A DNA stretch of 63,469 bases, filler included, from Asterionella formosa (GCA_002256025.1; 10 parts of 10 records of this genome joined end to end with filler, not necessarily neighbours in it), one strand, 5' to 3'; positions 3,967 through 57,068 are shown, counted from the first letter of the whole stretch. Numbers and translations are program-made. The notes: generated from the letters alone by a model not told the origin.

Positions 3967-4260
3967 ATTAAAAGTACCACGGGAGTCGAATTTATCGGAC
4001 CTTCCAGGTGGAAGCCTTCCTCGTAGATTATGTCTATTCAATAATGCTGTAGCGACCAGAAAACATACCTATTTCATTATTTGTTGCCGGTTTTTATAAT
4101 AGTGTTAATAGTTCAGTCGTTTGCTTGATGTTTGATGTATCATACGGCAGATGATGGCTAATTAAGTTTATAATAAAATGGCACACACCAGGTATCAGGG
4201 TGATCAAAAATTCCAAAGACTGGTATTCATTAAAACACAAAGCCACAATTGCATCTGGCC

Positions 4261-6312
4261 ATGTCGTCAACAGACGAAGGAGTTCCCTTCTACTTGATGC
4301 CGTTAGCGGCAGCACTAGGCATGTACAGCATCATATTTGGAACGCGGGTGCTTTATTTAGTGTACGCGAACTTGACTGTCAGAAACAACGGCACTTCCAT
4401 TCCACCGTCCATCCGCTTGACGGGCAAGACGTTCCCCTTCTTGCTCGGCAGTGTCGTTGCTTCCGTATTCCTGTATGCCAAATGCGTCGCTAGTATTGAT
4501 AATGCGATGCGGGAGAACGAGCTCAGTATGTTCGATCCATTTGATATTTTGGGCGTGTCAGAGTCGTCCAACGCGACTGTCATCAAGCAAGCCTATCGCG
4601 CGCTGTCCAAACAACACCATCCAGACAAGGGAGGAGATAAAGGACTATTCCAGAAGATCAACAATGCCTATCGAGCTCTCACGACAGAAGAAGGAAAGCG
4701 TAATTATGAACAGTACGGACATCCCGACGGGAAGTTCCAAGGGAATACTTTCCACTTCGCTTTACCAAGTTGGCTCCTAAAGCCGCAGGGAACCACGGCT
4801 GTCGTCCTAGTAGTGCTCTATTTAGGCGTGTTTGCTGCCCTGATTTACTTCGTTGTGAATTGGACCAGAAAGACGGAGGAGCAGGTGAAGGAAACTGAAA
4901 AGAGCAACATCGTCGCAGGTGCCGATGCTGCATATTTGTCGAGCACATTGGGACCTGAATCGACTCATTTGGACGTTCTTTTGTGCATTGCAACAACTCC
5001 AGAGAACATTGTCCTATCAATGGCGCAAATTGAAAAGGTGGAAGAATACAAGCAAGAGAAACTAGTAAAATCGAAAGATGCATCCGCCAAGGAATTGAAG
5101 AAAAAGGATACCTTCGATTTGGACGATGGGGTTTGGGATGAAGACGAAGGTGACGATGATGAAGCCAAAGCAGCAGCTGCCAAGGCGAGGAAGGAAGAAG
5201 AGATTAAGGCCGATGCTGCCAAACAATTGGCTGCGGCAACTGGCAAGTTATCCGTCAAGTTGGAGGGCATTGATGAAGGGGTTTTGGGACAAAAGTGGGT
5301 GGAAACAACACTTGCTCAAGGCAAGCGATGGCCGCCGCAAGATCTGCGTTTCTTGAAAAATGCGACTTTTGAATACAAAGGCAAGAATCTAAGTGCGATG
5401 GATCACCCTGCTGTGAGAAGAAATCTTTGCATGACAATGGGACGCTTGAACTCCATCTTGCTCAATTCTCACCCTGACCTTCTAGAGGCCAGTTCAAAGG
5501 GACTAATTGACCAAACTTACTTCAAGGGAACCATGGAGTACCGCCAGAGATGTGGTCTCTTGTTGGAAGCCGCGCTTCGTGTTGCCATGACAGTTCAATC
5601 CTACCGCCTTGCCAAGACTATTGTCGAGACCGTAAGTATGTTCAAGATCGGAGTTGAAAAGCCAACGGACAAAAAGACCATAGACTGGTTCCATGGTGTC
5701 ATGAAAAAACAGTACGGAGGCGAAGCTGGTATTCCTAGATTGGAAATTAGCCAAGTGCAGATTGAGACGCCAGATGAGGAGGAGATTGCCACCGAAGACT
5801 TGTGTGTCCTTTCGTTGGAAATGAGTCGTGCACATGCTGAGCGATTTACTCAAGTCAAGATTGCCGCCGCTCAGCAGCAAGGGATTCCTCCTCAAATCGC
5901 CCTTCAAACATACCGTGAGGGGTGGTGGATCTTGGTAAGAGCCAAGAAACTGGGTGGTAGTATAGCCCCAAAACTGGGAGTTCCTGAAAACGAACTCACC
6001 AAGACATTTGCGCCAGCTGACATCGACAAATTTGCATCCGAAGCACCCGAGAATCGATTACTGACCGCATGGCCCATGATTGTTCAAAATATGGCACAAA
6101 AGTCTGGAAAGGTCAAGGTACAGCTCATGGCGCCAGCTGTGCCTGGGAAATACAAGTTTATCATCTCTGTTATGTCGCAAGAGTTCTTGGGAGCTGATCA
6201 AGAGTTTGAAGTAGAGCATGAGGTTGTTGACTCAGCCACGGTGACGCGAGTAGAGGCTGAACCGAAGGAAGGAGAGACGCAAGAAGATGAAGAAGCTAAG
6301 AAAGATAATTAA
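4261..6312 (+). CDS. SEC63: Sec63-like ER translocon J-domain protein
   Basis: Two N-terminal TM segments, FDPFDILG...HHPDKGG J domain, NYEQYGHPDG, FALPSWL, a third TM, and a C-terminal EGWWILV...APAVPGKYKF...SQEFLGAD Sec63 fold with acidic tail. ATG at 4261. Confidence 0.88.
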   Translation: MSSTDEGVPFYLMPLAAALGMYSIIFGTRVLYLVYANLTVRNNGTSIPPSIRLTGKTFPFLLGSVVASVFLYAKCVASIDNAMRENELSMFDPFDILGVSESSNATVIKQAYRALSKQHHPDKGGDKGLFQKINNAYRALTTEEGKRNYEQYGHPDGKFQGNTFHFALPSWLLKPQGTTAVVLVVLYLGVFAALIYFVVNWTRKTEEQVKETEKSNIVAGADAAYLSSTLGPESTHLDVLLCIATTPENIVLSMAQIEKVEEYKQEKLVKSKDASAKELKKKDTFDLDDGVWDEDEGDDDEAKAAAAKARKEEEIKADAAKQLAAATGKLSVKLEGIDEGVLGQKWVETTLAQGKRWPPQDLRFLKNATFEYKGKNLSAMDHPAVRRNLCMTMGRLNSILLNSHPDLLEASSKGLIDQTYFKGTMEYRQRCGLLLEAALRVAMTVQSYRLAKTIVETVSMFKIGVEKPTDKKTIDWFHGVMKKQYGGEAGIPRLEISQVQIETPDEEEIATEDLCVLSLEMSRAHAERFTQVKIAAAQQQGIPPQIALQTYREGWWILVRAKKLGGSIAPKLGVPENELTKTFAPADIDKFASEAPENRLLTAWPMIVQNMAQKSGKVKVQLMAPAVPGKYKFIISVMSQEFLGADQEFEVEHEVVDSATVTRVEAEPKEGETQEDEEAKKDN

Positions 6313-6401: not shown

Positions 6402-8896
6402 TTATTTCTTTGCCTTTCCTTTTGCCATGCTTGGATTCTTGGCCATGCGCATCATTGTGGGGGTAAGCTCCAAAATCTCATCCTGAGCCAAGTACTCAAC
6501 ACAAGCATCCAAAGACATTTCGATGGGAGCAACGATACCAATGGTAATACCCTTATTAGCTGATCTCATGTTTGTCAACTGCTTGAGCTTGCACACGTTG
6601 ACCTCCAAATCACCAGGACGTTGGTGGATACCCACAATCATGCCCTTGTAAACTTCCTCTCCAGACCTGGTGAAAAGTTTTCCCCTGTCCTGGGCACCCT
6701 CACATCCAAAAGAAGTGACGGTACCATCAGAGAAGGCTAAGAGCGATCCCTTGTCACGTCCTTGAATTTCCAGGGGAATCATAGGCTTATAATCGTCAAA
6801 GACGCTATCGATGATTGCAGTTCCACGAGTGGCAGTCAGAAGGGCAGAACGAATTCCCAACATACCACGAGTAGGAACTAGGTATTTGATAATACTCATG
6901 CTACTATCTCCGTCTTCCAAACCCATATCTTTGAGATCTCCTTTACGCATGTTCAGCAAGTCAATAACTCCACCAACATATTCCTCTGGAACACGGACTT
7001 CAACGGACTCCCATGGCTCAAACTTCTTGCCGTTCTCGTCAGTCCTAATAATAACTGTAGGAGGCCCGACCTCCAATTCAAATCCCTCTGTTATATTGTA
7101 TTGGACAAGCAAGCACGTGAGAAGTGAATCATCCCATAATTAACACATGTTAATAAATAAAAAAACTTGCGACACTCACCTCGTCTCATGTTCTCAATAA
7201 GCACAGTCAAATGCAGTTGACCACGTCCCGATACCATGTATTGGTCGGCCGAATCCGTTTCTTCTACTCGGAGGGCCACGTTTCGGTCCAATTCCTTGAA
7301 GAGCCGGTCCCGGATCATACGACTGGTTAAAAATTTACCCTCTCTTCCGGCAAGTGGTGATTTGTTGACTCCAATAGTCATGCGAACAGTAGGTTGTTCG
7401 ACGGCAATAGGCTCGAGAGGCAAGGCGGCATTAGCGCCGGCGTTTTCGTTGGTCACCAAGGTGTATCCAATCTCGACATTGTCGAGACCAGCAAACATGA
7501 CAATCTCTCCAGCGCTAGCATTTTCAACTTCTCTTTTTCCAAGATTGTCGAAGACAAAAAGACTACCCTAAAATGTTGTCACAGAACATTCATAATGACA
7601 AAATCAGCAAAAATAGAGGATAAACCAACGACGAAAGGAGAAGGGCACAAAACTTACAACACGGCCAGTTCTCGATGGCTTTTCGGGATGAACCAGGGCC
7701 ACAGCCTGACCCTTCCGGATGACCCCGTTGGTGATACGAGCAATTCCCATCTTTCCCTTGAAATTATCGAAATCAATATTGGCTACAAGAGCTTGTAGAG
7801 CATCAGGTTCTGTACTTGTGACGCTTGGTGCATCAATTGCCTCCAAAATAGCATCAAAGAGAGGAGCCATGTCTGTCGCCATTTCAGTAGGGGAATGTCC
7901 GGCAATTCCATTCAATCCAGAAGCGTAAACGACACGAAAGTCCATTTGTACATCTGTGGCACCAAGCTCTGCAAATAAATCAAAAGTCTTGTCAACAACA
8001 TATTCAGGGCGAGCCGAAGGACGGTCAATCTTGTTGACCACCACGAGGGCCTTCATGCCCTTTTTGAGGGCCTTATCCAATACAAAACGCGTCTGTGGCT
8101 TGGGACCCTCGACACTATCGACAACCAGCAAAACTCCATCCGCCATATTGAGCACACGCTCCACTTCTCCACCGCTGCGATGTCGCAAGTTTTCCCGAAA
8201 TGGTGAGAGAAACTCCAAACACAAGTAGTACAGCGTAAACGATTTTCGTTTCTTCTACTTACAAATCGGCGTGACCCGGTGTATCCAAAATGTTATACTT
8301 CACTCCATCTCTCATGACAGCCAAGTTCTTGGCAAGAATCGTGATCCCACGCTCCTTTTCTTGATCTTCACTATCCATGACGCGGATACCAGCTTCATCG
8401 GCCTGTGCTTCATCACGAAAGACACCATTCTGGCGAATCAATGCATCGACTAGGGTCGTCTTTCCATGATCGACGTGAGCGATCACAGCAATGTTTCTTA
8501 ACGAGCAAAATAAATGACATGAGTGACGAAAGCCCCTGAAGTAGAATTCACAAACACATCACGTTGTGTGTGCGTCGTCGACGATGAATCTTGGAGGATA
8601 TAATTGTTCTTTGGAAGAATATCAATAAAAAATGTTCTTGGATGGACAGAGTGGCCGCCTTGTCAAATGCACATGAAACATTCGAGGCACTCCGCCACTG
8701 GCTAGCATACGGGTATGTCGTTTTAATAGTCAAGCATATCTGGGACGTACCTGAGTTTAAGATTAGTGCCAGCCGGAGCATCCGCAACAGCTGACATTGA
8801 CAGTTGGCATGTGGACTTGACTACAAAAGCAGGGGTGCTGAATGCACTACATGAGGCGATCAACGCCAACGCGAGGACTATATTAGAGCTCACCAT
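6402..8896 (-). CDS. typA: Plastid-targeted TypA/BipA GTPase, 5 exons (8896-8751, 8496-8263, 8174-7658, 7567-7180, 7087-6402)
   Basis: Splicing at GT-AG sites restores [40 protein letters not shown] and ENMRREGFE. N-terminus [19 protein letters not shown] is a signal peptide plus ASAF-type motif. Confidence 0.92.
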
Positions 8897-9099
8897 GGTT
8901 GAGAGGATAATAAATGATTGGTGCAGCAGGACGTTTTAGATTCTTGGCTGGGCTGGGCTGTGCTGCGTTTTTGCTACCTGGGAGTACCATCACCATCATG
9001 AGGGGAGCAAAACGATCGCTCCATCAGCCAAGGCGCAAAAATCGTGATGCGTATGTCGTGCCGCCTACAACGTACTCACCACATTGCATAAACCTTATC

Positions 9100-9218
9100 C
9101 CGGTACCTGGTACCTGGTACCTGGTAGCTGGTAGTCAGTACCAGGTACCCTGGTACCAGTACTCCGGGGGACATTCTGTACTCCAATTATTCTCATGCAT
9201 ACCGGTACCTGGTACCAA
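9100..9218. repeat. (TACCTGG)n array in the typA/STK19-like divergent intergenic region
   Basis: ccggtacctggtacctggtacctggtagctggtagtcagtaccaggtaccctggtaccag and ccggtacctggtacc. Confidence 0.85.
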
Positions 9219-9650
9219 GAATCAGGAGGAGGGAAATGAATGGCGGATGAGATCGCTGTGCTGGTTATGTCGTCCTACCAGCAAGTTGCGATAAATGAGA
9301 AATTTAGCTTTATTTCTATGTAGTCTAATGAATAATTATAAGTGTCTACTAGCAGTCGTAGTACGTACGTATGCTGCACCATCCAAAAAGGAGTACCCGG
9401 TACCTGTGAGTAACAGCTACTGGGACCGTATGTAGAGCGAAAACTGTTGCGTTACGACGTTGTATATTTATTTAGGGTTAGGGCCAATATCTATATTCAT
9501 ACAGGAGAAATAATAAAAATGTTATGTAGCTAGTACCCCCCTTTTTGTCACAATCGACGCATTAAAAAATGCAGTATGACAACAACATAACACAACCACG
9601 ACGCCATCATTAATGTCGCTCGCTACCATACCGTCTCACGCTCCGCCAGC

Positions 9651-10580
9651 ATGTCGACAAAGAAGGAAGCAAATCGTCTTGCAAGAAAGACAAATGGACT
9701 CAAGGTGACTTTCAAAAGAAGGGCTTGTCCATCAGGAAAAAAGAAGACGTTTGTTGCCGCCAACAGGGGTTTGCCAGTGCCATTGGCAGCAAGTTTCATC
9801 GAGGTGGCGACGAAGGAGGACGAGCAACTTGTTGAGGACGACATTCCTTGTGACACAATGCTAGCAATGCAATCCATAATTCAGGCTCAGCACTGTCTCT
9901 TTATTCCATCTCAAGCAGGAGGGGGGGACGCCACAGTACCTTTGGTTCTGGAATCACAACTCTACCAAAAGTTGGAAAATCCAAGAGAGGGAGACTCGAT
10001 TCTCACGAAGGAACTATTGAACTTGATTCACACCAATCAACTGAGGCGCATGGTATCAACAGATGCTACACTTGTAGCATTGATACACACCAGGGACTAC
10101 GTTAGAGCTGTTTGGGATGCTCACCATGCTTGTTGTAACGCAGATGCAGGAGGGCCCATTTCACAATCGTTGCGAGACATTACCCCATGGTTTCTTGCCT
10201 CGCTGTCCAAGTGGACCACACCCACCATATCAAGAGTTGAGATGAGCCATCTTTGGAAATCAAGTGCGAAGCACTTGTCACAAGCAATAGACATTCTTGT
10301 TATGAAAATGGGAGTGTTAATGGCCACGAATGAACCGAACATATTTATGTTTTGGTTACCAAATTGGGGTATAGTATTGCAAGCCATCAACAAGGCACAG
10401 AAAAGTATCCTGATGCGCATCAAGCGGTCCGCTTACAAGGAGATTTCAGAACAAAGTATTCGAAACTTGTCCTTACCAGGTGGTATTTCAGCCTTCTTTG
10501 TCGTGCAAACTCTCATTGCTATTGGTACCATACAAATCTATGAAAAGCCAGTTGGAACATTTATTCGATTGACAAAGTGA
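9651..10580 (+). CDS. STK19: STK19-like winged-helix protein
   Basis: Basic N-terminal NLS-like stretch, CDTMLAM, LVLESQLY, and FWLPNWG...ILMRIKRSAYKEI, resembling the Stk19 family C-terminal WxSxPxxG...KRxKYKE pattern. Confidence 0.7.
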   Translation: MSTKKEANRLARKTNGLKVTFKRRACPSGKKKTFVAANRGLPVPLAASFIEVATKEDEQLVEDDIPCDTMLAMQSIIQAQHCLFIPSQAGGGDATVPLVLESQLYQKLENPREGDSILTKELLNLIHTNQLRRMVSTDATLVALIHTRDYVRAVWDAHHACCNADAGGPISQSLRDITPWFLASLSKWTTPTISRVEMSHLWKSSAKHLSQAIDILVMKMGVLMATNEPNIFMFWLPNWGIVLQAINKAQKSILMRIKRSAYKEISEQSIRNLSLPGGISAFFVVQTLIAIGTIQIYEKPVGTFIRLTK

Positions 10581-10692
10581 ATGAAAATTCAACAAAAAGA
10601 TTTCCTTTTTATATTATAGTGTGTTTTTGTATCAAATAGAAAACGTCCGACGAGATACATGCGCAACCACAAAGGATAAAAAATGTTAAAAG

Positions 10693-12993
10693 TTACATGT
10701 AAACTTCGTCCTTGTCTACCACCAGTTTAGATAGAGACCTGGTGATAAGCGTCATCATTATGTGACCATTGTTGCGAGGAGCCAAGTCCATATACGTTTG
10801 CAAACCATTCGCTTGGTTTTGGATGGCCCACCACAAAAAGACGTGGAACCCCTGTTGGGCTCTGGCGCTCACTGCAGTCGTGGACGACAACATCAAGGCA
10901 GTGTCCAAAAAAGGCAACCCAGCCTTGCATAAAAAGAGCTTCTCCCGTTGAGCATTTTTGGCAGCGTGGGAAAGGGAGCGGGCAACTGCGAGATGTACAG
11001 CTTCCTCCTCACTAGTACGCATGCATTTTAGTATGGCGGACCTGTAATCCTTCAAGTCAATGGATGTCAAAAGGATAGGCCCAACGGCAAGACACGCGGC
11101 TGTACGAACGACGACATCGTTATGCTTCATCCATTCCTTGACAGTGTTTCGTTGAGACTCATTCAGAATTTGAGGTTGTGAAGTCAAAAGGGCCTGACAT
11201 GCAATTGCTCGACCGTGCAAGCACTCGACTTCAGATTCCCCTTGAGTCGAACAAGAGTGACCCATGGTTGACATTGATAAGTCATCTCTGGTTTCTTCAA
11301 TAGGGAACACAACATCGAGGATAGCTCTTTCTCTGGATGCAACTCCCAACAAAGTCACAGAGGCGCCGAGTACATGAGCAGCCCCAACCCGGACGCTCGC
11401 TTCCTTGTGGGTCAGGAGCGACAGAGCAACGTCCAGGGCTTGTTGCGGTGTGTCTGGCATCGTCAGTGAGGTTTTGGGAACATTATTTAAGAGGGAGGCT
11501 AAGCCTTCAAGTGTGCTTGCCTGAAGAGCAGCACTCCAAGAAGCGTCACTTGCGTTGCTTCGTTTTTCGACAGTAAATCCGCCACCATCTCTGGTATAGT
11601 CAACCATGTGCATAGTCCAAGCATTAGCCCGTTGAACAGGCCAGAGTGTTGCCAAGTGGCAGAGAGTAGCAATGGTCTCCCTTCGTAATGAATCAGAGAC
11701 GGAAGTTAGTGCGCCATCTAACGCTACTTGCAACAGCTGAAAAGACTCGTCGTTCAGACTATGGGCTTCCCATAAAGGTCGCAAACTAGTCTTCCAAGGT
11801 TTACCAGATTCAACTGCCAAAACAAACGGAACTTTGCCAAATTCATCTGCCACAGTTGCGGCTTTCGGGTACGCGGCTAAAAGCACTCCTGTCATATCGT
11901 CATTATTCGTTGTGTGCGCCATTCCGTTCTGCCGTGGTCGACCGAAATCAGCGTTGTATACAACTGACCCTTGTCGACTGCTCTTTGTAACATAATTTCT
12001 TGACCAGGGTTGCCCGACAGTTCGACAAGCAATATGAAGTGGTAAATTCAAATCTCCGTCCTGCTGGGAAATCGCATCAGGATCAATTTTGAGAATAAGT
12101 CTAATAAAAACGGACGGACATCCATCTACGCCAACAGCAGCATGTAAAACAAGAAATTTTCCATCCACATTAATTTCTTTCTCGGATGTATTGTCCTTGA
12201 TGGTTCCTTTGTACGCTGCTCGCAAAAGCAAGGATGTGGCGTGCCAACATTCATACAGATCACCCTTTTTCGATGTGCATTTTTCCCGAGCTACGTCGGC
12301 CAACACATCCTCCCTGAGAGCATCTTGCAGTTCTTCGGCGTAGTCATCCACCATCAACGACAATGGAGTACGCCCACGCTCATCCTGAGCAACAGCACAC
12401 GAAGAATCCATCCCCAGCAATAGTCTCAAAACCTCAAGTCGGTGAGGAGACCTAAAGCCAGCGCAAGCACAGTGCAACGGCGTTCGCCCACGACGATCCA
12501 CGAAATCTCGAAGCGAGCTGACATCGTCCGGCACGACCTTTTGGATTGTGCGAGGTTCTGACCCGCAAAAGCACGCGAAATGGAGGGGAGTAAGACCATC
12601 CATTGTCGTGGCCGACAGAGCGTCGGGGTTGGCTCGGATAAGGGCTTCGACAACTTCGGGAGGCGGTTGGCGTCGACAGCAGACATGAAGCGGCATGTTG
12701 TTGCACTTGTCTTGGTATCGAGCTTCTTTGGGATGCGAAACCACGCGCTTGATGAGAGCTTTCCAATCTCCAACAAGAGCATGTTCGTACAACGGGGGCG
12801 CGTCCGTTCCCATCAACATTGCGGATGCTGCCGACGGAGACGATCCGCCGGCGTAAGTCTGCTGATTGGATGATGACGTTATGCTGGAAGACGAGGTCGA
12901 CGGGGACATTCCTTTTATCTCTGCAAGCTTTACCTTGAGGACCTCTGGGTCTTGGAAAGGGTCCCATGGTAAGGTTGAGTGAAGAGTGCCCAT
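10693..12993 (-). CDS. Ankyrin-repeat protein fused to a GCN1-C-terminus-like HEAT region
   Basis: Ankyrin motifs NNMPLHVCC, GLTPLHFAC, GRTPLHCAC, GRTPLSL, LNLPLHIAC, GKVPFVLA. The last ~350 aa align collinearly with the last ~330 aa of the adjacent GCN1. First ATG 12993; an upstream exon cannot be excluded. Confidence 0.85.
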   Translation of the reverse strand: MGTLHSTLPWDPFQDPEVLKVKLAEIKGMSPSTSSSSITSSSNQQTYAGGSSPSAASAMLMGTDAPPLYEHALVGDWKALIKRVVSHPKEARYQDKCNNMPLHVCCRRQPPPEVVEALIRANPDALSATTMDGLTPLHFACFCGSEPRTIQKVVPDDVSSLRDFVDRRGRTPLHCACAGFRSPHRLEVLRLLLGMDSSCAVAQDERGRTPLSLMVDDYAEELQDALREDVLADVAREKCTSKKGDLYECWHATSLLLRAAYKGTIKDNTSEKEINVDGKFLVLHAAVGVDGCPSVFIRLILKIDPDAISQQDGDLNLPLHIACRTVGQPWSRNYVTKSSRQGSVVYNADFGRPRQNGMAHTTNNDDMTGVLLAAYPKAATVADEFGKVPFVLAVESGKPWKTSLRPLWEAHSLNDESFQLLQVALDGALTSVSDSLRRETIATLCHLATLWPVQRANAWTMHMVDYTRDGGGFTVEKRSNASDASWSAALQASTLEGLASLLNNVPKTSLTMPDTPQQALDVALSLLTHKEASVRVGAAHVLGASVTLLGVASRERAILDVVFPIEETRDDLSMSTMGHSCSTQGESEVECLHGRAIACQALLTSQPQILNESQRNTVKEWMKHNDVVVRTAACLAVGPILLTSIDLKDYRSAILKCMRTSEEEAVHLAVARSLSHAAKNAQREKLFLCKAGLPFLDTALMLSSTTAVSARAQQGFHVFLWWAIQNQANGLQTYMDLAPRNNGHIMMTLITRSLSKLVVDKDEVYM

Positions 12994-15900
12994 GGTGCTC
13001 TTGAATGCGACCAAATGACTTTCTTGCGTTGTTCAGAATAAGGGAGCTAATATGTGTGACCGTGAACGTGACCTCCTTCCATAGGTACCCAACTGGTCAG
13101 TACTTGTCGCCTTTCCTTCAGTTCTCAGTTGAATAGGGTTGAATCCCTTCGATTGGACTTCGACAGAATTGACTCGTCGCTATTGATCCTCCTCCAGAAT
13201 CGACGCGATAGTCTTGTTACTCCCGGACGAAATGACGGTGAAACCACTAGCACCCTGGCTGCGGAAGAAGCAGATGAGCCCTTGGGACGCGCACCAATGT
13301 CAGCAATAACAGATGAAACAATTGAGATCTCGTTCTCTCGCTTCACATCAAGTGCCTGGTACAATAATGACTGCAATGCTATGACGCGTGCAACACAGCA
13401 ACAAATATATCAAAGTTCGAAACGAATGATGGTATAATAATCAGCAACTCGAACACAGGTACCTTTATCTTACCTTCTTGGAGCTTAGAAGCAAAGAAAG
13501 AACCCTGCGATCAATCACTTTAGAATATCGTACTTGTGCGTTGCCAATAACTGTTGAGATGGCCGGTAATACCAGGACATGCATGCCGGTATACACATAC
13601 CGGTATGTGGTAGGATGAGTACTTTACATCAATATCAAATGTACCGGGAAGTCTATGTAGGCAGTGCCAGGTACATAATTGTGGTGCTCGACCCATGAAA
13701 ATTACGCGGCACGGCAATTGCTGGGTGGCTTTTATAACGTTTCGGTCAAGGCGGCCGGCGACTTTTCATGAGTACCGTTAATGCCTTCTTGGATACTGGA
13801 CTGTACATGGCGGGTGTAGGTTGGTATCAGGTACGGACTTCTATTTACGAGAAGGCAATGAGAATTTCATCTTCTCTACTACGGTAGTTAGTATGAAATG
13901 GCGCTATTTGCACTTATTTGTAGATACTAGATATTATGTAAAGTACTTACCTTTTTTACTCTACCTATAATACTATTCCCCTGTTCTTCAGAAAGGTCAT
14001 GATAATATATCTACAGGAATATCAATCAGATTTTGTTTAATCGTTGTATTTCGGACCATTTCCCGATACCGAGATGTCCTAACGGTATGTATAAAAAATA
14101 ATTCAAGAATCATATCTCTACGGTACCAGGGTACACAGCCCGGACGCATCATTTGCAAAATAAATGGAAAAGCCGACATCGGTAAAATACATCCAGAATT
14201 TGAAGAATGAGAACTGGTTGCTGCTAACGGACTAAGTCCCTGGTTCACCCGGTATTGATTGCGAAACAAACCACCTTTCTTCGTACATGTGCAAACTACC
14301 CCGGCTTTCTTATTTCTCTTTCCTAGTCCATAATGACTGTGATGTCAATTATTATTCATACAGTTCGTCTCGCATGTCGTACAGATGTTTAAAAAAATAA
14401 ATGGTAATACAAATGTGCATAGAAAACATTCTAGACTACCGGTATCCCTAATACATATATGTTTAAAAACCTTGCCATTATTGTTGGCAAAATCAGACAA
14501 GGTTCCTCCCACATTTGAACCCAAAGGCAAAAATTAAAATATTGCTGAGGGTTACCGAATTTCCTTGGAACTTGGAATTTGTAGGAGCTAATATCGAATA
14601 TCAATTATTCCACTTGCATTTTTTAAACTTTAAATGTTTTTACACTGGCTGCTATGTATGGATCTCAGTTGACAGCCATCAAGATTGATTTGGATTTGTC
14701 TTAACCTTGCTTGTTTGTCATTTTGTTTACCTGTAAGCGGATTGACAACAGTTCCTGTTAATCTTGAGTAAAGAAGTAATTGGGTTAGTTCAATCATTTA
14801 CACAATTTTATTCATTGTTTGAATTTGTTTGAATATTTCTTCTGAAAGGGAGTAAATTTACAATGTTATGCCCTATGCTGCTTGGGTTCTCATATGCCTC
14901 CTTTCCAAAATTAGATCTACTTTGATTGATCATTTTCACACTGCTAGTAGTATGTATTGATCTCAAAATTGGCGCATGATAGTAGGCGTGAATACAGGAG
15001 ATTTTAGGACTAAAAATTCATTAACAAGACTCTGATTCTGATGAGGACATGTCTGCACATAGCTAGTGATTCTGATTCAAATATATTGGAGACTGTTGGA
15101 AAGGCAAGAAATGTTGTCAAATTTTTGGATGATGATTGCTCCACATTGGCAGCTTTTGATAATGAATTAAATATATCGGCTATCTTCAAATAGCATCCAT
15201 ATAAACTTTTGGCAAGAAACTGCAGAAAAGAAGCTTCAATTTGTTATTATGCAAAAAATCATTTGCATACATAGGTAAGCTTCAAATAGTAGCAGCAGTT
15301 GACTTCTGGCAAGAAAGCGCAGAAAGGAACCTCGGTTTTTTACTCCAATTAAAATCATTTCCCCTGAATCATCTAGTTTTTTCTCATGATAGTAAAACCC
15401 TGAAGTTCTTCTCTGCAGTTTCGTGTGAGATTCTATATCCTGGCTGACGTAAAATAGATTTGACCTATAACCATACTTTGAGCAATGACTCTATCCAAGC
15501 ATATGGAAATAGTGTCAAATGGTGAAAGCTCCATTTAGAGATATTAATATTTATTTTACTTTTGAAAATTTTGTGTTACTATTCCGGATCAATATTTTCT
15601 ACAAATTTAGTTCGACCAAGGGTTCAAATGCAGAAACCTTTTAAGACCAGGATAGTGGAAAAATGAATATTAACCAGATGCACGTGTATAAATTTGGAAT
15701 GACTATAGCATCCACGCAGGTGTGGAACTAGATACAATTTTTTGCAACTTGCCGATCCCTTCTTCATGAAAAGAACTCACAGAAAAGCGGCAAATCAGGA
15801 AAATCAAGATGTCACTAAAATCTCGATTTTTGTGATAGAAATTTGACTTCCTGGTAGGCAAAACATTTGATTTCGACAAACTTGCTTAACTCATTCCACA

Positions 15901-16950
15901 TGCTGCTTCCTTAATCGTTATTTATCAAGGCCATTAGCTGAGGTGGAATCTTGGCCTTGGGTCTTGAGTAGTCATTTTGGGATGTCTCTATGAAGGGGCA
16001 TGGTGGGAGGACCATGCAATTGGAATGCACCACACTGGCTTCCTTCTTGTCCTTGAAGTGGTTTATTCATTGATCTGCGAAGTTTTAGATAGAAACAGTG
16101 GGTCAGTAATTCATTTGTTACAACTACTAGCTACAGCAGCAATGAAACACACATACATGCACCATTCAACTGTTTCACGGAGGAGCCCATTATTTTGCAG
16201 CGATTAATCCAGGCAGCACCACAGGTCACTCAAGATTTAAGAAGAGCGCTGATTTTGTGAAAGGGCGTGTTGAAATGTCAAATGAATGTAGAGAACAATA
16301 ATCAGTGTGATGATCAGTGTCAGTAATGCATTGGCTCAATCATAGTGGTTTCAAAATCAATCATTAAATAATAAATTCAAGAAAATGTTTTACTATACAT
16401 AGGAAAATATGAATAGATAAATTAATATCACCATTCCATGTCATGCTTTATCAATCTACAAGTTCGTACGTGATAAGAGCTGATGCATGATGTGTCATAG
16501 TGTTAACATCTCAAGCCTCAACAATGAGGACTGATTTTTAAAATCATTTTTATCAGGTGAGGTCATCTAAATCAACCTATTTTGTATTTCTGTTGGTCCT
16601 TTGTCAAATTGACTATGTCAAGGATTTTGACAACATGATAAAATAATTTTCCCATCTGAAATTGAGTGTGGCCAAAGCCGTCTCAAAAGTCACGATACAT
16701 TGGTGGAAACTTGGGAAATCAACCAAAAGCATAGGGGATTCGACATGTTAGACAAACCTATACTACAGAACCAGTGTTCATGAGTATATGAATTGCCTAC
16801 CAGATCCTTTCCTCTGCTACATCACAGTCAATGTCACCAATCTTTCTCAGGTTGATCCTTGCTAAATTTGTTGCCAAGGGGCACCCCACATTCTATTCTA
16901 TCCCTGTAGTATAGTTTTAAGGCACCATAAAAACGAAGTTCAATTATTAT

Positions 16951-19900
16951 CTAATCTTCCAGATCAACCATCTTGATTCTGCTTAGCACCTTTGAAAAAA
17001 TAGATTTCATGGACTTGGAATTGTCAAAGTTGGCAACTTCCAAGTAGGCATTCAGCCCAGCCTCACCATTCTTCACATCCAGAGCTAGCCAGAGCACATC
17101 GTTGAATGCGAATTGTACACGTTGACTTCCACTCATGGACAGCTCCAAACATGCATCCATTATGGACTTGCCCAGGAACCATACCTTATTCTCCAGTTGT
17201 GTTGACAGTGTTATAGCTAGACACAGACCCTTGGCTAAGGCCTTGAGAACTTCAATACGCTCTTGCTTGTTCTTCATAATAGAAGTGATGAGGTTTTCAG
17301 CCTTAGCCAGCCGAGCCTTTGGGTCAGCTGCACTTCCAATGCTGGCACCAAGAGCAGTACATGCCGTTTCCTGTACAATGCCTTTGTCATCCTTTGTATA
17401 CTTCATAATGAGTGAGGCCATCTGCTGAGAAATATTATCATCAATGATGGAACCAACTGAAGCAAGGACGTAGTGGCATGCACATGCCTTTCCATGTCGT
17501 ATTTCCCCAGTTTCCCCTTTGGGAGAACTTAGGATATCAGATTGAATGACTAACATTGTTGCATCCTTCCCTAATAGCTTGCAGGCAGCTCCCATCACCT
17601 TGGCAGCACCCTCCCGAACACCCTCATCCTGGTGTTGCAGAAGTTCTTTGCTTGCCTCCAGAGCGGAAGGAATGCTATCCGACAGTTTTGCCTTATCTCC
17701 TCCTTTTGTTAACACGGCAGCCAGAGCATCAAGGGTCGCCATTTGGATTGCCGCGATTCCACCTTCCATACCCTTCCCTAGCGAACCAGAAACCAATTCT
17801 TTCAGAAGTGGGTCTACACGAGTGGACAACGGCATCAGAAGACCCAACGCTTGAATGGCCTCAACACGAACCTGCCGACTGGGGTCTGACAAAGCCTTAA
17901 CAAAAGTCGTTTGGAATTGAGGAACAAATGCTCGCAAAGCTGGTCCGCCTTTGACTAGGACAAGGCCTAAGGTTCTCAAGATAGCAATCTTGACATCAGC
18001 TGGATTTCGGTCGCCAACAATACGAAGCAGCGGACCAGTCATTTTGATAATTAGAGGCCCGGCGAGATATTTGTTTGCTGTTAGTGAAATCAGTTCCCCC
18101 AAACCAGAAGCAGAAATTTCTCGAATATTGGGGTCACCATAGAGAATACCTCGTTGGTATATCGGCAACAAGGGCTCTAATCCTATAAAATAAACAAGAA
18201 AGTTGTGAAAAGGAGAAGCGATACACCCGAGAAACATGTAATTTTGATTGGCAATCAGAAAGACTAATCGTTTATTCCCCCCACAAATGATCGGGACAAC
18301 AAAATTTCATCATGTTGCCGACGAATAAAACAAGAAAAGGCGAAATGACTTACCTTTTGACACATTGAATCCTGGCATGAAAAACTCGCCGTCTCCAACT
18401 CCACCCTTTCGCCTTCTGGCGTCACTAACCATACTGCCAATGAGATTGCGAACAAATTCGATATGTTTTACGAGTTCCTCGGCAGGTACGTGCGTAGACA
18501 GCGCATTTAGCGCAGAATGACTGGACTTTAATACACTGGGGTTTTCATCCATGAAACGATAAAGAAGGTCACGAAGTATTATCGGAATTTGCTCGTAGAA
18601 ATCATTTTTGTCTTTCCCTAGGATGGAGAGGGAAACAGGCATATTAGTAAATTGACGATAACAACGAAGCTAATGTAAAGCGTCCAGTGCTTGTCAGACA
18701 GAAATCTCATTGTAGACCCTCACGGTAGTTGCCTTTTAGGTGGAACAAAATAGAGCAAAATAGAGTTTTTCCTCATCCAAACAGAATGGAAAAATAAATT
18801 TGACAATGAACGCAGTGACTTACTTTCTTCGACCAAAATTTGAAACATCCAGCAACTTTCCTTCCGAATCTCTGCCTTCTCATTGGCACATTTGCTTGCT
18901 ATTTCGGTGACCAACCAGTTCACACCACTTTCGTCAACGTTCTTACAAATTGCCCGAGCAGCTTCTCGAATGGATTCCTCGTGTTCTGGAGTATTGCCTG
19001 TAGCAATCATCCCTAGCTCTGAGATGATCGATGGAATTATTGAAGCAAAATGGCTGTATAACGTTGTACTTGTAACTGCTGCGATTCCAGATAGTGCACG
19101 CGCGTGATTGATTGTAATGGGGCTCTTGATCAAGCGAGGAATGATGTAAGGAAGGAGTTCCCTGCTGCGAATGCTTAATATTCCAGTTAGTCCATGTAGG
19201 GCGCGCACTCTGGACATGTCTTTCTCATCCCCATTTTCTAACGCAACGAGAAGGGATGGAACAATTTCATCAAGTGCTCGATTTCCTACAACATTGTGTA
19301 GGCTCTGGAAACACGAAGCAGCCATCACACGAACACCTTCGTCTTCATCACAAAGAGCATCTTGAACAACCTTGACAATAATCTCGATAAACCGGAGAAT
19401 TTGATCTCGAGTTGAGCAACTAATGACTTCAGAAAGACCAACACAAACACCAGTTCGTGTATGCTTGTCACCGTCGTAGAGCGCGTTTCGTAAAACAGGA
19501 ATGATCTCTGGAAGGACAGAGTCGCCAAGCTTGTGAACAATGTCTCCAAGGCATCGTCCAGCAACTTGCGTTCTCTCCGGGTGGCCACTCGCTAGAGCGT
19601 CGACAATCTGGCCGACCAGGATCGGTAGAATGTCCCGTAGTGTACGAGCCGTAACACTAACAACTGTCTTCCAAACTTGAACAGCGCTACTACGCACCAC
19701 CGCTGCAGTATCGTTACGGGCCAAATACAAGCTGCTGAGCACTCTCTTCCTGGTCTCGCTTCCCAGTGTGATCGCAATTTGAACTTGAGCTCGCTCAGCT
19801 TTTCTGACATCGTCTTGCGTATTCCCGTCTCCAGTGATAACGCTTGTTCCTCCAATCATACTCAACAAATCACCCAGCAATGTAAGTGACGCCACACGAA

Positions 19901-22900
19901 TACGGTAATCCTCGTCGACAAAACCAGCTTCAAGACTTGGAAGGATTTTGTCTGAGTGGACCTTTCCATGACTTCTAATTAAGACCCGACCAGCACGCAT
20001 GGCGACATCACGGACAGGCTCGCTATCATCGGATAATCCACCAATCAAGGCAGGAAGGGAAAGGTCGATAAGGGATGTAAACGCCTGCCCTAGAGCAGAA
20101 GGAAGAAAAGTAAGGACCCAAAGTACTCCCTCCCTTGTACTTGCTCGTGGATGACTTCGGAGAGGGAGAATCTCATCGCGCATTACGACGTCGACAATGG
20201 AGGCCCCTCCAGCAATCAATACTTCAGTAAGACCTTGGGCAGCCCCACTTCGCTCAGCAGAAGTCACCGTGTCTTCGCACAACTGTTCAATTAACCAAGT
20301 ACGTAATTCTGGTAAGTTGTCCTCCCCAAGGCCACGAGTAAGCGATCCAAGGGCTTTTGCAGCTGTACTGCGTACGTCAGGAATGGGGTCCAACAATGCC
20401 AGTTTCAGATCAGGTAAAAGGATGGGAAGATACGGAATTAAATCTTTTGGCTCGTTGACCATTGTGCATATATTGCCGGCAATGAGAGCTCCATACCTCT
20501 TTGACGACGCAATGCGGTCTCTTAGTCCACGATGAAGGATTGGAACGATCAAAGCCAAACTAGGCGCATCGATAGCATGAAGAAACTCAGTTTCTATCAA
20601 AGATTCCAGAGCTTTGATGGTTCCTTCAGCAGGATCTGTCAGTGCCTTTAAGAGGACCTTGGAGATGGAACTAATTTCGGGATTCTTTACAACTTTTGAT
20701 ATTTCGTCTAGGGCGTCTTCTGCGCTAGCTTTGACTTTTGCATGTGTATCACCAAAAGCCTCAATTAACTTGGGAACGACCTTCGGTAAAGCGGAGGCAA
20801 GTTGTTTTGGTGCCAGGTGGCTCATGCTACCGAGCATTTGTATAGAGGCCTGTTTTGTTCGCCATGAAGGATCATTGAATGACGAGAGAACGGCTGGCAT
20901 GACCAGCTTGACACCATGAGCTGAGAGCTTACTCATTATGAGGCCAGCAGTGTTTGAAGAAGCAGAACGAACATGATCGCTTCCGTCGCTAAAGGCCTTC
21001 AACAGCGACGGCAATAAAACAATGACATAGGGTTCGAATAGCAGTCCCAGTCGGTCGCTAAGGAGCTCGATTGCAAACAAGGCGCCTTCTTTGTTTGTTG
21101 ACGAGCCTGTGTCAAAAGCACCTTCTAACTGCTTGACGATTTCAAATTTTTTCAGACTAGCGATGCCACTCCCCTTCACAACCGCAGATATACCATGAGC
21201 GGAACCTCGTCGCTTTTCCCTTGTGTCTCCGTAGAGGCAGGCTTGGAGTAAGCTGGAAAGTAGGGCTTCCACTCGCTCTTGGGTGCGGCCTTTCTTCATC
21301 AGTTTCACCAGACATGCTGCCACACTGGCCTGTACTCCTTCACTGGGAGTACCCAATGCTGAAAGTAGCATATCGACGGCGTTATCGATCTTACATTCGT
21401 TGTCTGGCCCTTTCAAGTGAATTGCAACCGCGCCTAGAGCAACAACTGCGCCTTCCTTTCGCATGTCTGAAGCATCAAAATCTTGAGGAACCTTATCTCT
21501 CGGTAACTGGCCTAAGAGATCGGGATTTGCTTTTCCTGAATTCAGAACACTCTCAAGGCTTGGCAACAGCAAAGCTGTAGCATCATCTGATCCACCATAC
21601 ATTGTAACGATGTCACGGAGGGCGTTCCTTGCCAGTCCACGCACATTGTTGTTTCGATCGGCAAGTCCATACGCTAATAAGAACCCGGTTAACAGTTCCA
21701 AGGTTGAGGCCTCGAGAGATATCTTCACTGATGGTTCTGTGATTGCAGTAATGGCGTTCAACATTCCTATTCTGGTTGCAATCTTATCATCAGAGTCTAT
21801 TTCTGCTTCTATCTTCTCCGTGACCACTTTAAATTGATTTGCCAACAGCTCGTGATCAAACGTCCTGTCTTCCTTTGGTTTTAGAAAGGGAGACTCAACT
21901 GGCAACTTCTTCTTTGTTGCCTTTGGATTTCCAATTCCTGCCATGGCTAATGCAGATTTCGGTGGGGCCTTCTTCTTGGGCAATCCTGTTGAAATGGATT
22001 TCTTCGGAGGGGCCACTAGAACGAGAGGCTTTTTGGAGGGCAAAGCTGAAGGCATGCCGAGTGGCGCTGTTTTCCCTTTTGCATTGTCGAATACGGTAGG
22101 GTAGCATTTGATGTATGTTGCGCATAGTTTCTGAATATTTCTCTCAACAGAATTAGGGTGCATTCCCATCGCAGTTGCATTTGCTATTGAAGATGCATGA
22201 GCTATGGATTGGTCAACGTGCGTCATTAGCGGCAAGAGTGGAATTGCATACATAACTGACGGAGGTTGTAGTACATCGCCATCTGACGATGAGAAGGTAC
22301 TCCAGGCAGCTCGAGCCGCGTCTCGAATAGCATCATTATTTTCGAAGCAGTTCATCCATATTCTATTTTCTATCAATGGGTTATTTTTCACCAACTTTCG
22401 GCTATGCTCTGCGATTGCCCGCAATGCGATCATAGCTCCAATGCGACAATTCTTGCCACCGAGGGCGCCTCTGTCATCCAAAAGTGGAGCGATTTCAGCG
22501 GCAGTCAAGGTTGGACCTTCTGCAGCATCATCGGTCGTATAACAAGCCACAAGAGTAGAATATGGATTCGGATCAACAAAGGTCTGTGATCTATCGTGCG
22601 ACAAAAGCTCGAGAACAGTTGCAGCCATATCCTTTCGTAGTGACGCCACAGGTGAGTCCATGTCCTCTCCGGCAAGCATTGACGTATGTCGTGCTAATAT
22701 GCTCAACGCTGATTCACAGCCCGGGGTTGTCCGGGGCCCAGTCAATGCTGCTCGCAAAATCGGGAAAACGAAAGCAAAGGAAGCTCCGGACAAGTGGTCG
22801 TTAAATTCCTCGATTGCCGATATAACTCGGGATGCTGACTGGCATGGAGAGGGAAGGGCACGAATTCGGAGACCATCATGAAAGTTACAATTTGATTGAT

Positions 22901-25204
22901 CGGTCGAAATACAATTGGTGTCGCTACTACAACAAATCGTCAGGGCTTGCGCCATATCTGAAGCATAACTTTCCTCGATTTCGTAAACACATGTAGCCAA
23001 TGTGGTCAATGTCGACACAGCTTTCTTCCGTAGCTTGGACATCTGCTTGAGAGCGATACATTCAGAAACTGCAGTGGCAAGGACCTGTTTGCCAAGTGAT
23101 GGTAGGCATGAGTTGCCAACATCGACATCTGACAAGAAAAGTGCTTGAATTGATGCCAAGGTACGACAAAAATCTCCATCAAGAATGCAGAATATACGTT
23201 GCCTTTCAATGTTTTGTTCTGCAACAACCTTCTTGTCGTCTTCAGACAGCGCCGAAGTTGACTGTCCCGATAGCATTGCCTGCTTCCTAAGAGCCAGTTC
23301 CCTCTTCATTTGGCGCTCCCATTCTTCATCTTCTAATTCTCCGCCAAAGCCAGTATTACTCCGCTTACTCTTTCCAGTGCTTTTCTTTACGTTCGCCGAT
23401 TTCTTCTCGGTGGACGAGGCGCCGGACTCTTTGGTTTTTCCGTACTGCTCGCCGAAAGGAATATTTTTGGGACTAAGGAAAAGATCAATATCTTTCTCCT
23501 CGAGAGCAGACATATTCTGATGAGACAAGCTCAGAGCGGCGGCGAATCGCCCAGCTAGTTCATCGGAGCAGATCTTTCTTGTCAAGGCAAAGGGCTTCAT
23601 CACTTCGGTTTCCGGATCGTCAAAAGTTGGATCGAACAAAGAAGCGATGCCACCTAAAGTTCTAATCAGACTCATTGCGCAGTTATGTAACTCCTTGCTG
23701 ATAATAACCTCCTCGCTTGAGCCTTTGTAAATGTAGAGAGAGCAAGAAAATCTTGATATTTGCTCACCAACTTCTTTGATTAATTTGTCTTCGTTTCCTT
23801 GGGTTGACCAGCTGACAAGGCGATCCTCTATCAGCTTTTGGGTACCCGAAACTACTGCGCATCGTTGTGGACCCTTGGCTTTCTGAGTTGTTCCTATATG
23901 CATCAGCAACCAAGCACTTGCCAAGCTTGATGCATTTGTTGTATATCCTCCAAGCATCGACGCAGCATGACGAACTGAACTTGAATCGAATCCATGGTGA
24001 GAATCTGTAGACGAGAATTGGCCCTTACCCGCTGACTTCGTTTGTGACTCTTCACCGGGAGAAAAAGCCTCTCGGGCTTCTCGCGTAGCATCCAGGGAGT
24101 TAGCTGTGCTTTCGTTTGCAGTGGTAATCAGATTCACGTGTCGAATGAGGGACTCTATAATTGCGTCCGCAACTCCAGTCTGATATGTCAACACAGTCTT
24201 CAACGAAGACATAATTGAACCTGACGCTGTGGACCACTTCGACGATGCAGGATGACTAATGCAGCAACAGAGAGCATGCGCGGCAGATGTTTCGTTCAAA
24301 CTGTCAAATATACTTGAATCCATCTCTTTCTTTTCTAGAAACTTTGCATAAAACGCAAGCGTTTGGGATAGCAACTGAGACACGGTTCCGTTTGTTACAG
24401 CGGCATCAGTCATTGCCTTTCCAAATACAAAGGAAGTCTTTGCAACAGAGGCCGACCCGGCGCTGAGGACCTTGTTAATGCTTGGCAACAAGTCCAACGT
24501 CCCAGAAGCAACAGAGTTGACAAGGCCAATGTACACAGAGATCAGCCCATCAAGCGAGGCGATAGCACTTGAAGATGCATGCTTCTTTTCTGCTCCATCG
24601 ATCAAAGATTGTAAACCTTTCTCGATTTTTGTGTCCTTGCACAAATCAATGATCAAAGACTCCTGCATGTCCATATTGAACATAGAAAACATGGGACCGA
24701 CGCGCTGAAGAGTGTCAGGCCCACTACCAGCCAGTATTCCTGCTCTTAGAAATAGCATGGCATCGTCATAACCCTTCCCTCTGCCGTCATTCCGCTTGGC
24801 GAGAGTGACCCAGGTCCAAATAGCTTCAACTCCAGCCTCCCTTGCCGACGTTGCTGTTTTAAGCTCCTTGTCGAGTGCTGTTGCCAATCCTTTCAAAACC
24901 ACTGATGAAATGTCGGCATCAACTAAAGTAGCCTTTGGTATCTCACTCCCTATTTTGCGAAGCGCAGTGTAGGCTTCCTGTCGGAAGTCTGCTTGAAGTA
25001 GTGAACCATTGATGGAACTTACAAGTGCAAGAGCGATTTTGGACAAGGCCTGTGATGTAGGCTTCAAAGCAGCTAAACTTACGAGCAAAGACTGCGACAA
25101 ATAACGATTAGAAGCTTTTGTTGACTTGAGCTGCTTTAGAAGTGAAGGAAGCAACTGTGGGTCACCCTCTAGGGAATCAGTCACGTCGAGATCCTTGAGC
25201 TCAG
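16951..25204 (-). CDS. GCN1: GCN1 (eIF2-alpha kinase GCN2 activator), 5' end lost at the contig break; exons <25204-18824, 18617-18354, 18182-16951
   Basis: HEAT array with EGALFAIELLSDRLGLLFEPY, KLSAHGVKLV, SWRTKQ, HAIDAPSLAL, ERSGAAQGL and TGPLLRIVGDR. Two GT-AG introns join the three ORFs in frame. Confidence 0.93.
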
Positions 25205-25304
25205 NNNNNNNNNNNNNNNNNNNNNNNNNNNNNNNNNNNNNNNNNNNNTTAATTAATTAANNNNNNNNNNNNNNNNNNNNNNNNNNNNNNNNNNNNNNNN
25301 NNNN
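25205..25304. other. Artificial contig linker (44 N + TTAATTAATTAA + 44 N); identical linkers at 50465, 52091, 53717, 55343, 56969, 58595, 60220, 61845
   Basis: Fixed 100-bp spacer with stop codons in all six frames, present nine times. Flanking contigs are in descending length order. Confidence 0.97.
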
Positions 25305-29779: not shown

Positions 29780-29972
29780 TCCCTGGTATGGTAGCGTCCC
29801 TGGTGCACCAGGAACCAGTACTTGGTTACCTGGTGCCAGGTACTCCTCCTAACTACCTGATGGTAGACTGCTAGTGACCATAGAACTAAGTTAGGCACAA
29901 AATTTATATACTTCGAACGGAATACTAATTTGAACGAAGTAATCCTTGAAGGTGTGAGTGTATCGAAGGAAA

Positions 29973-52090: not shown

Positions 52091-52190
52091 NNNNNNNNNN
52101 NNNNNNNNNNNNNNNNNNNNNNNNNNNNNNNNNNTTAATTAATTAANNNNNNNNNNNNNNNNNNNNNNNNNNNNNNNNNNNNNNNNNNNN

Positions 52191-53716: not shown

Positions 53717-53816
53717 NNNNNNNNNNNNNNNNNNNNNNNNNNNNNNNNNNNNNNNNNNNNTTAATTAATTAANNNNNNNNNNNNNNNNNNNNNNNNNNNN
53801 NNNNNNNNNNNNNNNN

Positions 53817-55342: not shown

Positions 55343-55442
55343 NNNNNNNNNNNNNNNNNNNNNNNNNNNNNNNNNNNNNNNNNNNNTTAATTAATTAANN
55401 NNNNNNNNNNNNNNNNNNNNNNNNNNNNNNNNNNNNNNNNNN

Positions 55443-56968: not shown

Positions 56969-57068
56969 NNNNNNNNNNNNNNNNNNNNNNNNNNNNNNNN
57001 NNNNNNNNNNNNTTAATTAATTAANNNNNNNNNNNNNNNNNNNNNNNNNNNNNNNNNNNNNNNNNNNN

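Follow-up and report, generated by a model that had tools for sequence, protein, structure and literature searches.

GCN1 (Gcn1 in yeast, GCN1 in human) is a sensor of stalled and collided ribosomes and a co-activator of GCN2, and small regulators, IMPACT/Yih1, compete at it. The extreme C-terminus is the least understood part of this sensor. The sections of PMC8040806 drawn on here report that residues 2052-2428 of yeast Gcn1 bind the RWD domain of Gcn2, that R2259A and F2291L disrupt this binding, and that on the leading ribosome the C-terminal arm extends as far as the site where factors bind, apparently touching the P-stalk. A contact between the GCN1 tail and the P-stalk is also reported in the excerpted text of a preprint (bioRxiv 10.64898/2026.09.19.752920). 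Here we describe a gene of Asterionella formosa found in a window of 63,469 nucleotides (the whole stretch of DNA that was analysed, ten parts of GCA_002256025.1 joined with filler). It is very probably a chimeric diatom gene, in both origin and architecture, in which an ankyrin protein ends in a duplicate of the ∼310 C-terminal residues of GCN1. This segment presumably corresponds to the HEAT arm that lies past the core of the region binding RWD/GCN2. Overall we regard this explanation as likely; re-use of the fused tail as an adaptor module, our preferred reading of its function, is much less certain.

The ankyrin protein and its GCN1-like tail

The gene lies in a minus-strand open reading frame (ORF) of 773 codons (10693..13014); its coding sequence, uninterrupted and free of introns, occupies 10693..12993 on that strand and specifies 766 amino acids (aa) from the first Met plus the stop. 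The protein is identical to the database protein P0004 but for 2 residues. We compared it with the last exon of the GCN1 gene in the same window (P0002, ORF 16951..18237, minus strand), with whose end the sequence-only reading of this DNA had found the ankyrin ORF to be collinear. BLASTP bore this out over 284 aa, with 79.0 bits, E 8e-20 and 84/284 identical positions (30%), residues 495-764 of the ankyrin protein (P0001) running collinearly with 162-421 of P0002. The two proteins also end almost together, as had been proposed, since the alignment stops within 9 and 7 residues of their ends, and a 33-residue block previously counted as 16/33 identical gave the same count in the BLASTP alignment. 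Another of the earlier blocks, ALTSVSDSLRRETIATL / ALSDPSRQVRVEAIQAL, fell outside the significant alignment with the window's own GCN1, although it was covered in comparisons with other diatom GCN1 tails (P0043, P0053, P0115, P0118 and P0119), to which the tail query aligned from residue 19-20. P0001 residues 494-765 (10720..11535, minus strand) make up the part that BLASTP and local phmmer align significantly with the tail of the neighbouring GCN1. On the GCN1 side, the putative source paralogue comprises P0002 residues 115-428 plus the stop (16951..17895, minus strand), as delimited by the alignments and by Pfam, where PF25801 (HEAT_GCN1_C_2) matched residues 162-422 at 2.5e-14. The homology thus begins at about residue 115 of P0002, downstream of the segment TGPLLRIVGDR (residues 67-77), whose yeast counterpart may be the one with R2259.

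Could this match reflect generic HEAT resemblance, or chance, rather than descent from GCN1? Several searches speak for such a reading and so weigh against ours. The window's own tail showed no PF25801 at E ≤ 1, Pfam assigning it only HEAT_2 and HEAT. A profile of seven family tails found no GCN1 chain among PDB sequences (the best match was an artificial alphaRep, 7.8e-4), and Foldseek with the tail model returned generic solenoids only (importin-4 in the lead at 5e-4, along with huntingtin and CAND1), so that structure adds nothing specific to GCN1. A feature search of the protein atlas did not discriminate, yielding various HEAT families at 0.92-0.93. The collinear alignment reaching both C-termini contradicts generic resemblance, and so does an internal control: the other 2154 aa of the same GCN1, which consist of dozens of HEAT repeats, gave the 354-aa tail a best match of only 26.6 bits (E 0.005, 38 aa). 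We also scanned 1,835,955,588 representative proteins with the tail by phmmer and obtained 57 matches at E ≤ 0.001, 44 of them at E ≤ 1e-10. Pfam annotation of 56 of the 57 revealed 15 proteins with ankyrin N-termini (three of these also with PF25801), 6 GCN1 proteins or fragments in which EF3-like or HEAT_GCN1 domains occurred, 9 proteins whose sole family was PF25801, 7 that had nothing but generic HEAT and 19 short fragments matching no family at all; none of the 56 had another named HEAT family (importin, PP2A, CAND1 and so on) above the cut-off. Two full-length GCN1 proteins among the matches (2828 and 2847 aa) were matched at their extreme C-termini. PF25801 was also present in 5 of the 7 family tails. 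Taken together, the comparisons make generic resemblance extremely improbable and support the C-terminal domain as a true paralogue of the GCN1 tail, in agreement with the earlier proposal that it should align specifically with GCN1 and not with HEAT proteins at large. P0001 lacked PF24987, PF24984 and PF23271 at E ≤ 1 in Pfam, by which it is not a GCN1 orthologue.

The GCN1 tail itself, searched against the PDB, found a single GCN1-like chain, 8i9x_LR, which was matched mainly via residues upstream of the copied part. This chain of 2898 aa is labelled 'Ribosomal protein L19', and a GCN1-like protein from Histoplasma (P0152), with PF01280, bears the name '60S ribosomal protein L19'. Both look like a GCN1-L19 gene-model fusion or a label passed into databases.

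The product consists of an MGxxxS start, a disordered Ser-rich stretch, ∼350 aa of ankyrin repeats and an eight-repeat HEAT solenoid. The ankyrin-repeat module (P0001 residues 68-417; 11764..12813, minus strand) was delimited by Pfam, an AlphaFold2 (AF2) model and Foldseek, and matched Ank (8.4e-15), Ank_2 (1.7e-14) and Ank_4 (1.7e-12), each exceeding its cut-off. In the full-length AF2 model (predicted local distance difference test (pLDDT) 79.5, predicted template modelling score (pTM) 0.71) the first 60 residues are disordered and ankyrin-type helix pairs extend from about 61 to 410, the paired-helix repeats mostly having a pLDDT >85; Foldseek matched this model to ankyrin and DARPin chains alone. 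The HEAT solenoid assigned to the GCN1 tail by AF2 and phmmer (354 aa; 10696..11757, minus strand) forms sixteen helices up to the C-terminus, and modelled alone it reached pLDDT 91 and pTM 0.89. At the junction a helix at 400-410 is followed by a 4-residue turn and a helix at 415-429, and the model suggests that the ankyrin and HEAT parts may form one continuous solenoid. Within the HEAT part lies a family-specific disordered Ser-rich loop that is not in GCN1 (..DDLSMSTMGHSCS..; 11236..11295, minus strand). It appears as an insertion in the BLASTP alignment with P0002 (P0004 residues 567-586), has a pLDDT <50 in the full-length model, and contains the motif D..S.STMGHS, of which D570, S573 and S575 are invariant among 7 family sequences.

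To examine transcription, RNA contigs of four runs (X1, X2, X4 and X6) from two studies were placed on window positions 8500-25200; they carry no strand information. Contigs of X1 (9602-13473), X2 (9604-13279 joined to 13473-13591) and X4 (9635-13502) were collinear with the genome over the ORF and its ankyrin/HEAT junction. The 5' untranslated region of the ankyrin gene contains a GT..AG intron (13280..13472, minus strand), which was spliced in one X2 contig and retained in contigs of X1, X4 and X6. The sequence-only reading had asked for a single transcript across the junction and described a tail fused to the ankyrin N-terminus in one intact ORF; contigs from three of the four runs bridge the junction without an intron, and the ORF is uninterrupted and transcribed. 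In X6 two contigs meet end to end at 11749/11751, where the sequence varies (T>A); X4, too, shows the T>A change at position 11750.

Is the fusion an artefact of the gene model or the assembly, or a recent local duplicate decaying to a pseudogene? The break of the X6 contigs at 11750 and a contig-joining linker elsewhere in the window (∼25205-25300) could be taken in its favour. The X6 break, however, sits on the polymorphism, and the three other runs span it; moreover the same architecture recurs in 76 sequence clusters that include transcriptome-derived proteins, and the fused tails group together in a separate deep clade, which is not sister to the window's GCN1. We therefore give this explanation almost no credence.

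Distribution, age and place of the fusion

A first word-indexed search recovered six relatives with 31-78% tail identity, five of which had ankyrin domains, one of these also with PF25801. We then searched with the ankyrin module and took the best 120 of 490 matches, which contained 98 new proteins; among these, 51 carried the tail (hmmsearch E ≤ 1e-5). The tail carriers were the relatives with the strongest ankyrin-module scores, and the weaker ones were tail-less and included kinase and HECT architectures. Altogether both modules were present in at least 76 distinct 90%-identity cluster representatives. Named sources are a minority of the records, and every one of them is a diatom, so that the family may extend beyond diatoms. 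The combination of ankyrin repeats with a GCN1 C-terminus, for which the earlier reading had suggested a search, is widespread. The family occurs in Skeletonema menzelii, S. potamos, Thalassiosira exigua, T. profunda, Conticribra weissflogii, Cyclostephanos tholiformis, Stephanocyclus meneghinianus, Cyclotella cryptica, Discostella pseudostelligera, Ditylum brightwellii and Asterionellopsis glacialis, under the product labels 'hypothetical protein', 'Uncharacterized protein' and 'ankyrin repeat protein'. A literature search, which covered few subscription journals, found no description of this architecture, and a GCN1 tail standing alone on an ankyrin scaffold seems not to have been described.

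How old is the fusion, and in which direction did the copy travel? The window's GCN1 tail found 15 GCN1 proteins at 43-58% identity and ≥98% coverage; below these, identity was ≤31% and coverage ≤72%, the named proteins being from Solanum, Cinchona and Histoplasma. In a local phmmer search, the tail of the ankyrin protein matched 12/12 of P0109-P0120 and 0/55 of the other, non-diatom GCN1 proteins (P0121-P0175). A tree was built with 65 rows. Of these, 28 were fused tails (from 21 full-length proteins and 7 long fragments), 23 were tails of diatom-type GCN1 ('diatom-type' being our own label, based on full-length similarity) and 14 were tails of other GCN1 proteins. The 14 were those of the 55 with at least 319 residues past the alignment start (most of the 41 omitted end before the tail), and short fragments and near-identical cluster members were omitted as well. 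IQ-TREE placed the fused tails in one clade (100/98), with which a quick tree agreed, and separated the fused and diatom-type GCN1 tails from other GCN1 tails at 100/100. Mean identity was 28.7% between fused and diatom GCN1 tails, 15.9% between fused and other GCN1 tails and 22.4% between diatom and other GCN1 tails, and among the columns conserved at ≥80% in both the fused and the diatom GCN1 clade 23/24 had the same residue. As judged from these sequences, the fusion is a single event, no later than the common ancestor of the diatoms sampled here and more recent than the split of the diatom GCN1 tail from the plant/fungal type. The deep clade of fused tails, the 76 clusters and the invariant loop residues are in line with the view in the sequence-only reading that the copy is old and constrained. 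In plants, too, the tail lines up collinearly with the C-terminal end of GCN1, and therefore the direction is from GCN1 to the ankyrin protein.

Some features of this comparison count against such a history. Only 3 of the 23 diatom-type GCN1 rows bear a diatom name (Coscinodiscus, Pseudo-nitzschia Psemu1 and Thalassiosira sp.), and the diatom-type GCN1 tail clade was supported only at 90/92. Most residues that both clades have in common are hydrophobic or Gly/Ala and could be structural, and the date of the duplication is loose because no non-diatom stramenopile GCN1 was identified.

The GCN1 gene lies ∼4 kb upstream of the ankyrin + tail gene on the same strand. As far as the window holds it, it extends over 16922..25204 (minus strand) and has at least 2619 codons, as defined by RNA contigs, an open spliced frame and Pfam. 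Joints in the RNA contigs mark minus-strand introns at ∼18182-18352 and 18618-18823, and a T-run at the loose end of the contigs marks the poly(A) site at 16922 (minus strand). The exon at 18720..25184 (minus strand, 2154 codons) corresponds to P0003, and Pfam found HEAT_EF3_N (1.1e-64), HEAT_GCN1 (8.6e-28) and HEAT_EF3_GNC1 (5.1e-26) in the GCN1 gene. Between the two genes lies a spacer (13592..16921) with no long ORF, low G+C (0.356 at 14001-16000) and almost no RNA cover. Because the GCN1 contigs end in poly(A) at 16922 and the spacer is almost free of RNA, GCN1 and the ankyrin + tail gene are two separate transcription units in tandem. At ∼25205-25300 the window has two N runs around TTAATTAATTAA, which has stops in every frame and is a typical contig-joining linker. 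GCN1 is broken by it in its 5' part, and cover by RNA contigs continues past 25200.

The earlier reading had called the duplication local. The arrangement of GCN1 followed by the ankyrin + tail gene, 4 kb apart on one strand, speaks for this part of its claim: a tandem duplication that began within the GCN1 tail and ran to the end of an ankyrin gene downstream of it would join both at the junction, and the order seen here is the order expected at such a junction. With thousands of genes in the genome, the parent and the derived module seem unlikely to have come to lie side by side by chance. For relatives, a metagenome scan yielded six loci, three of them with useful flanks (L003, L004 and L005). 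GCN1 was not the flanking gene in two relatives of ∼30% identity, L005 (8 kb upstream) and L003 (4.3 kb upstream), and it was not found in the 10 kb downstream of the family gene in L004. At L001 (52% identity) a convergent downstream Stk19-like ORF (L001:552-1253) is kept, on a contig too short for the upstream side. The absence of GCN1 beside L005 and L003 tells against a local event, and the adjacency in A. formosa could be either a surviving relic or chance. We consider a local origin plausible, but it is unproven.

Possible roles of the copied tail

The ankyrin protein begins MGTLHST, which fits a myristoylation-like pattern. This is the PROSITE pattern, with a Met-Gly start and a small residue or Ser/Thr at position 6. 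The start region (MGTLHSTLPWDP; 12958..12993, minus strand) was assigned by pattern match as MGxxxS/T followed by W.P, and in the family the start MG-x-x-x-S/T frequently precedes W-x-P. A start of the MGxxxS type was present in 35/76 family cluster representatives, as against 0/47 tail-less ankyrin relatives; most of the family models without a match have an internal start, and a few miss the pattern only narrowly. From its sequence, the conserved MGxxxS start looks like a myristoylation signal.

As the ankyrin protein has neither the N-terminal ribosome-binding three-quarters of GCN1 nor its EF3-like region nor, presumably, the part with R2259/F2291, it cannot replace GCN1 in activating GCN2. 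The earlier reading had suggested a mimic or adaptor that might take part in ribosome-collision or amino-acid-stress signalling without GCN2 binding. What, then, might the tail do? By analogy with GCN1, the copied tail could still dock on the P-stalk, or on some partner of the GCN1 tail peculiar to diatoms, while the ankyrin repeats and a lipid anchor would link it to another partner or to the membrane; the protein would then be an adaptor, or would compete for the binding site of the GCN1 tail. We regard this lipid-anchored P-stalk mechanism as rather unlikely. Still less probable, in our estimate, is its most specific form, in which a myristoyl-anchored ankyrin scaffold bearing the P-stalk-contacting tip of GCN1 would serve at the ribosomal stalk as a second reader or competitor, associated with the membrane. 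If it were true, stalled ribosomes could be tethered or sampled, or the access of GCN1/GCN2 to the stalk gated, which would amount to a lineage-specific branch of translational stress signalling.

The main rival, which we rate above the P-stalk mechanism and consider a distinct, if tentative, possibility, is that the tail was neo-functionalised, the HEAT scaffold being kept and the GCN1 ligand lost, so that the protein would be an ankyrin/HEAT scaffold whose role, e.g. in membrane or cytoskeleton organisation, would have nothing to do with ribosomes or the GCN pathway. The fused tails are only 28.7% identical to GCN1 tails, with the shared conserved residues mostly of the core type, and they have the inserted Ser-rich loop of their own; the nearest ankyrin relatives show many other architectures, and the fold searches returned generic solenoids only. 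On the other hand, 23 of the 24 jointly conserved columns have kept the same residue through the whole diatom radiation, the kept columns include H-G, W and Y positions that do not belong to the generic HEAT consensus, and all the closest ankyrin-module relatives keep the tail. Re-use of the fused tail as an adaptor or competitor is still the reading of function that we prefer, at the low probability given above. The retention of a stand-alone copy through the sampled diatom radiation argues that the tail is an autonomous functional module, and a protein of 766 aa (compared with >2600 aa) is small and tractable for finding the ligand of the tail. A widespread diatom family labelled as uncharacterised would thereby gain a link to the translation-stress machinery.

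Neighbouring genes and comparison with known systems

Downstream, the RNA contigs of the ankyrin gene also extend into a convergent gene. The ORF there (309 aa; 9651-10580, plus strand) is convergent with the ankyrin gene, RNA contigs span both, and it has a weak match to Stk19 (PF10494, 7.6e-6) at 26 bits, below the 27-bit cut-off. Elsewhere in the window, an ORF with DnaJ and weak Sec63 domains (4249-6312, plus strand) and another resembling polynucleotide phosphorylase (RNase_PH, KH and S1; 29958-32843, plus strand) both look like ordinary neighbours. The region 50597-58562 contains five near-identical ORFs of 513 aa, four of them direct on the plus strand with a period of ∼1626 bp (starts at 50597, 52223, 53849 and 55475) and the fifth inverted (57021-58562, minus strand); in each of two scanned copies there were five prealbumin-like domains (SpaA/SdrD_B/CarboxypepD_reg).

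Finally, we compared the chimeric gene with the systems that resemble it most. With GCN1 it shares the last ∼310 residues, which are homologous and collinear to the C-terminus over the PF25801 region. It differs in that it is without ∼88% of GCN1 (the EF3-like domains, HEAT_GCN1 and the N-terminal arm), starts past the segment that should hold the RWD-binding core, and adds the ankyrin repeats and the myristoylation-like start. Tail-less diatom and stramenopile ankyrin proteins have an ankyrin module related at 23-35% identity; the 47 found here are without the tail and without the MGxxxS start, and some are kinase or HECT proteins. The type of event is already known, namely a chimeric gene from a partial duplication with re-use of a HEAT-solenoid segment, as in eEF3, and the diatom gene is a clean example of chimeric gene birth. 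The N-terminal HEAT region of eEF3, homologous to the centre of GCN1 (PF24987, PF24984; the relevant sections of PMC8040806), is a precedent for a segment of the GCN1 solenoid beside another module. In eEF3, however, the segment is central, its partner is an ABC ATPase and the distribution is fungal or wider, whereas in the diatom protein it is the tail and the partner is an ankyrin module. According to the same sections of PMC8040806, Gir2/DFRP2 is a separate protein that tunes the GCN1-GCN2 axis via one interface, a logic which the diatom protein may share. Gir2/DFRP2 and IMPACT/Yih1 have RWD domains and bind GCN1, while the diatom protein copies a piece of GCN1 itself, and any competition by it is putative.

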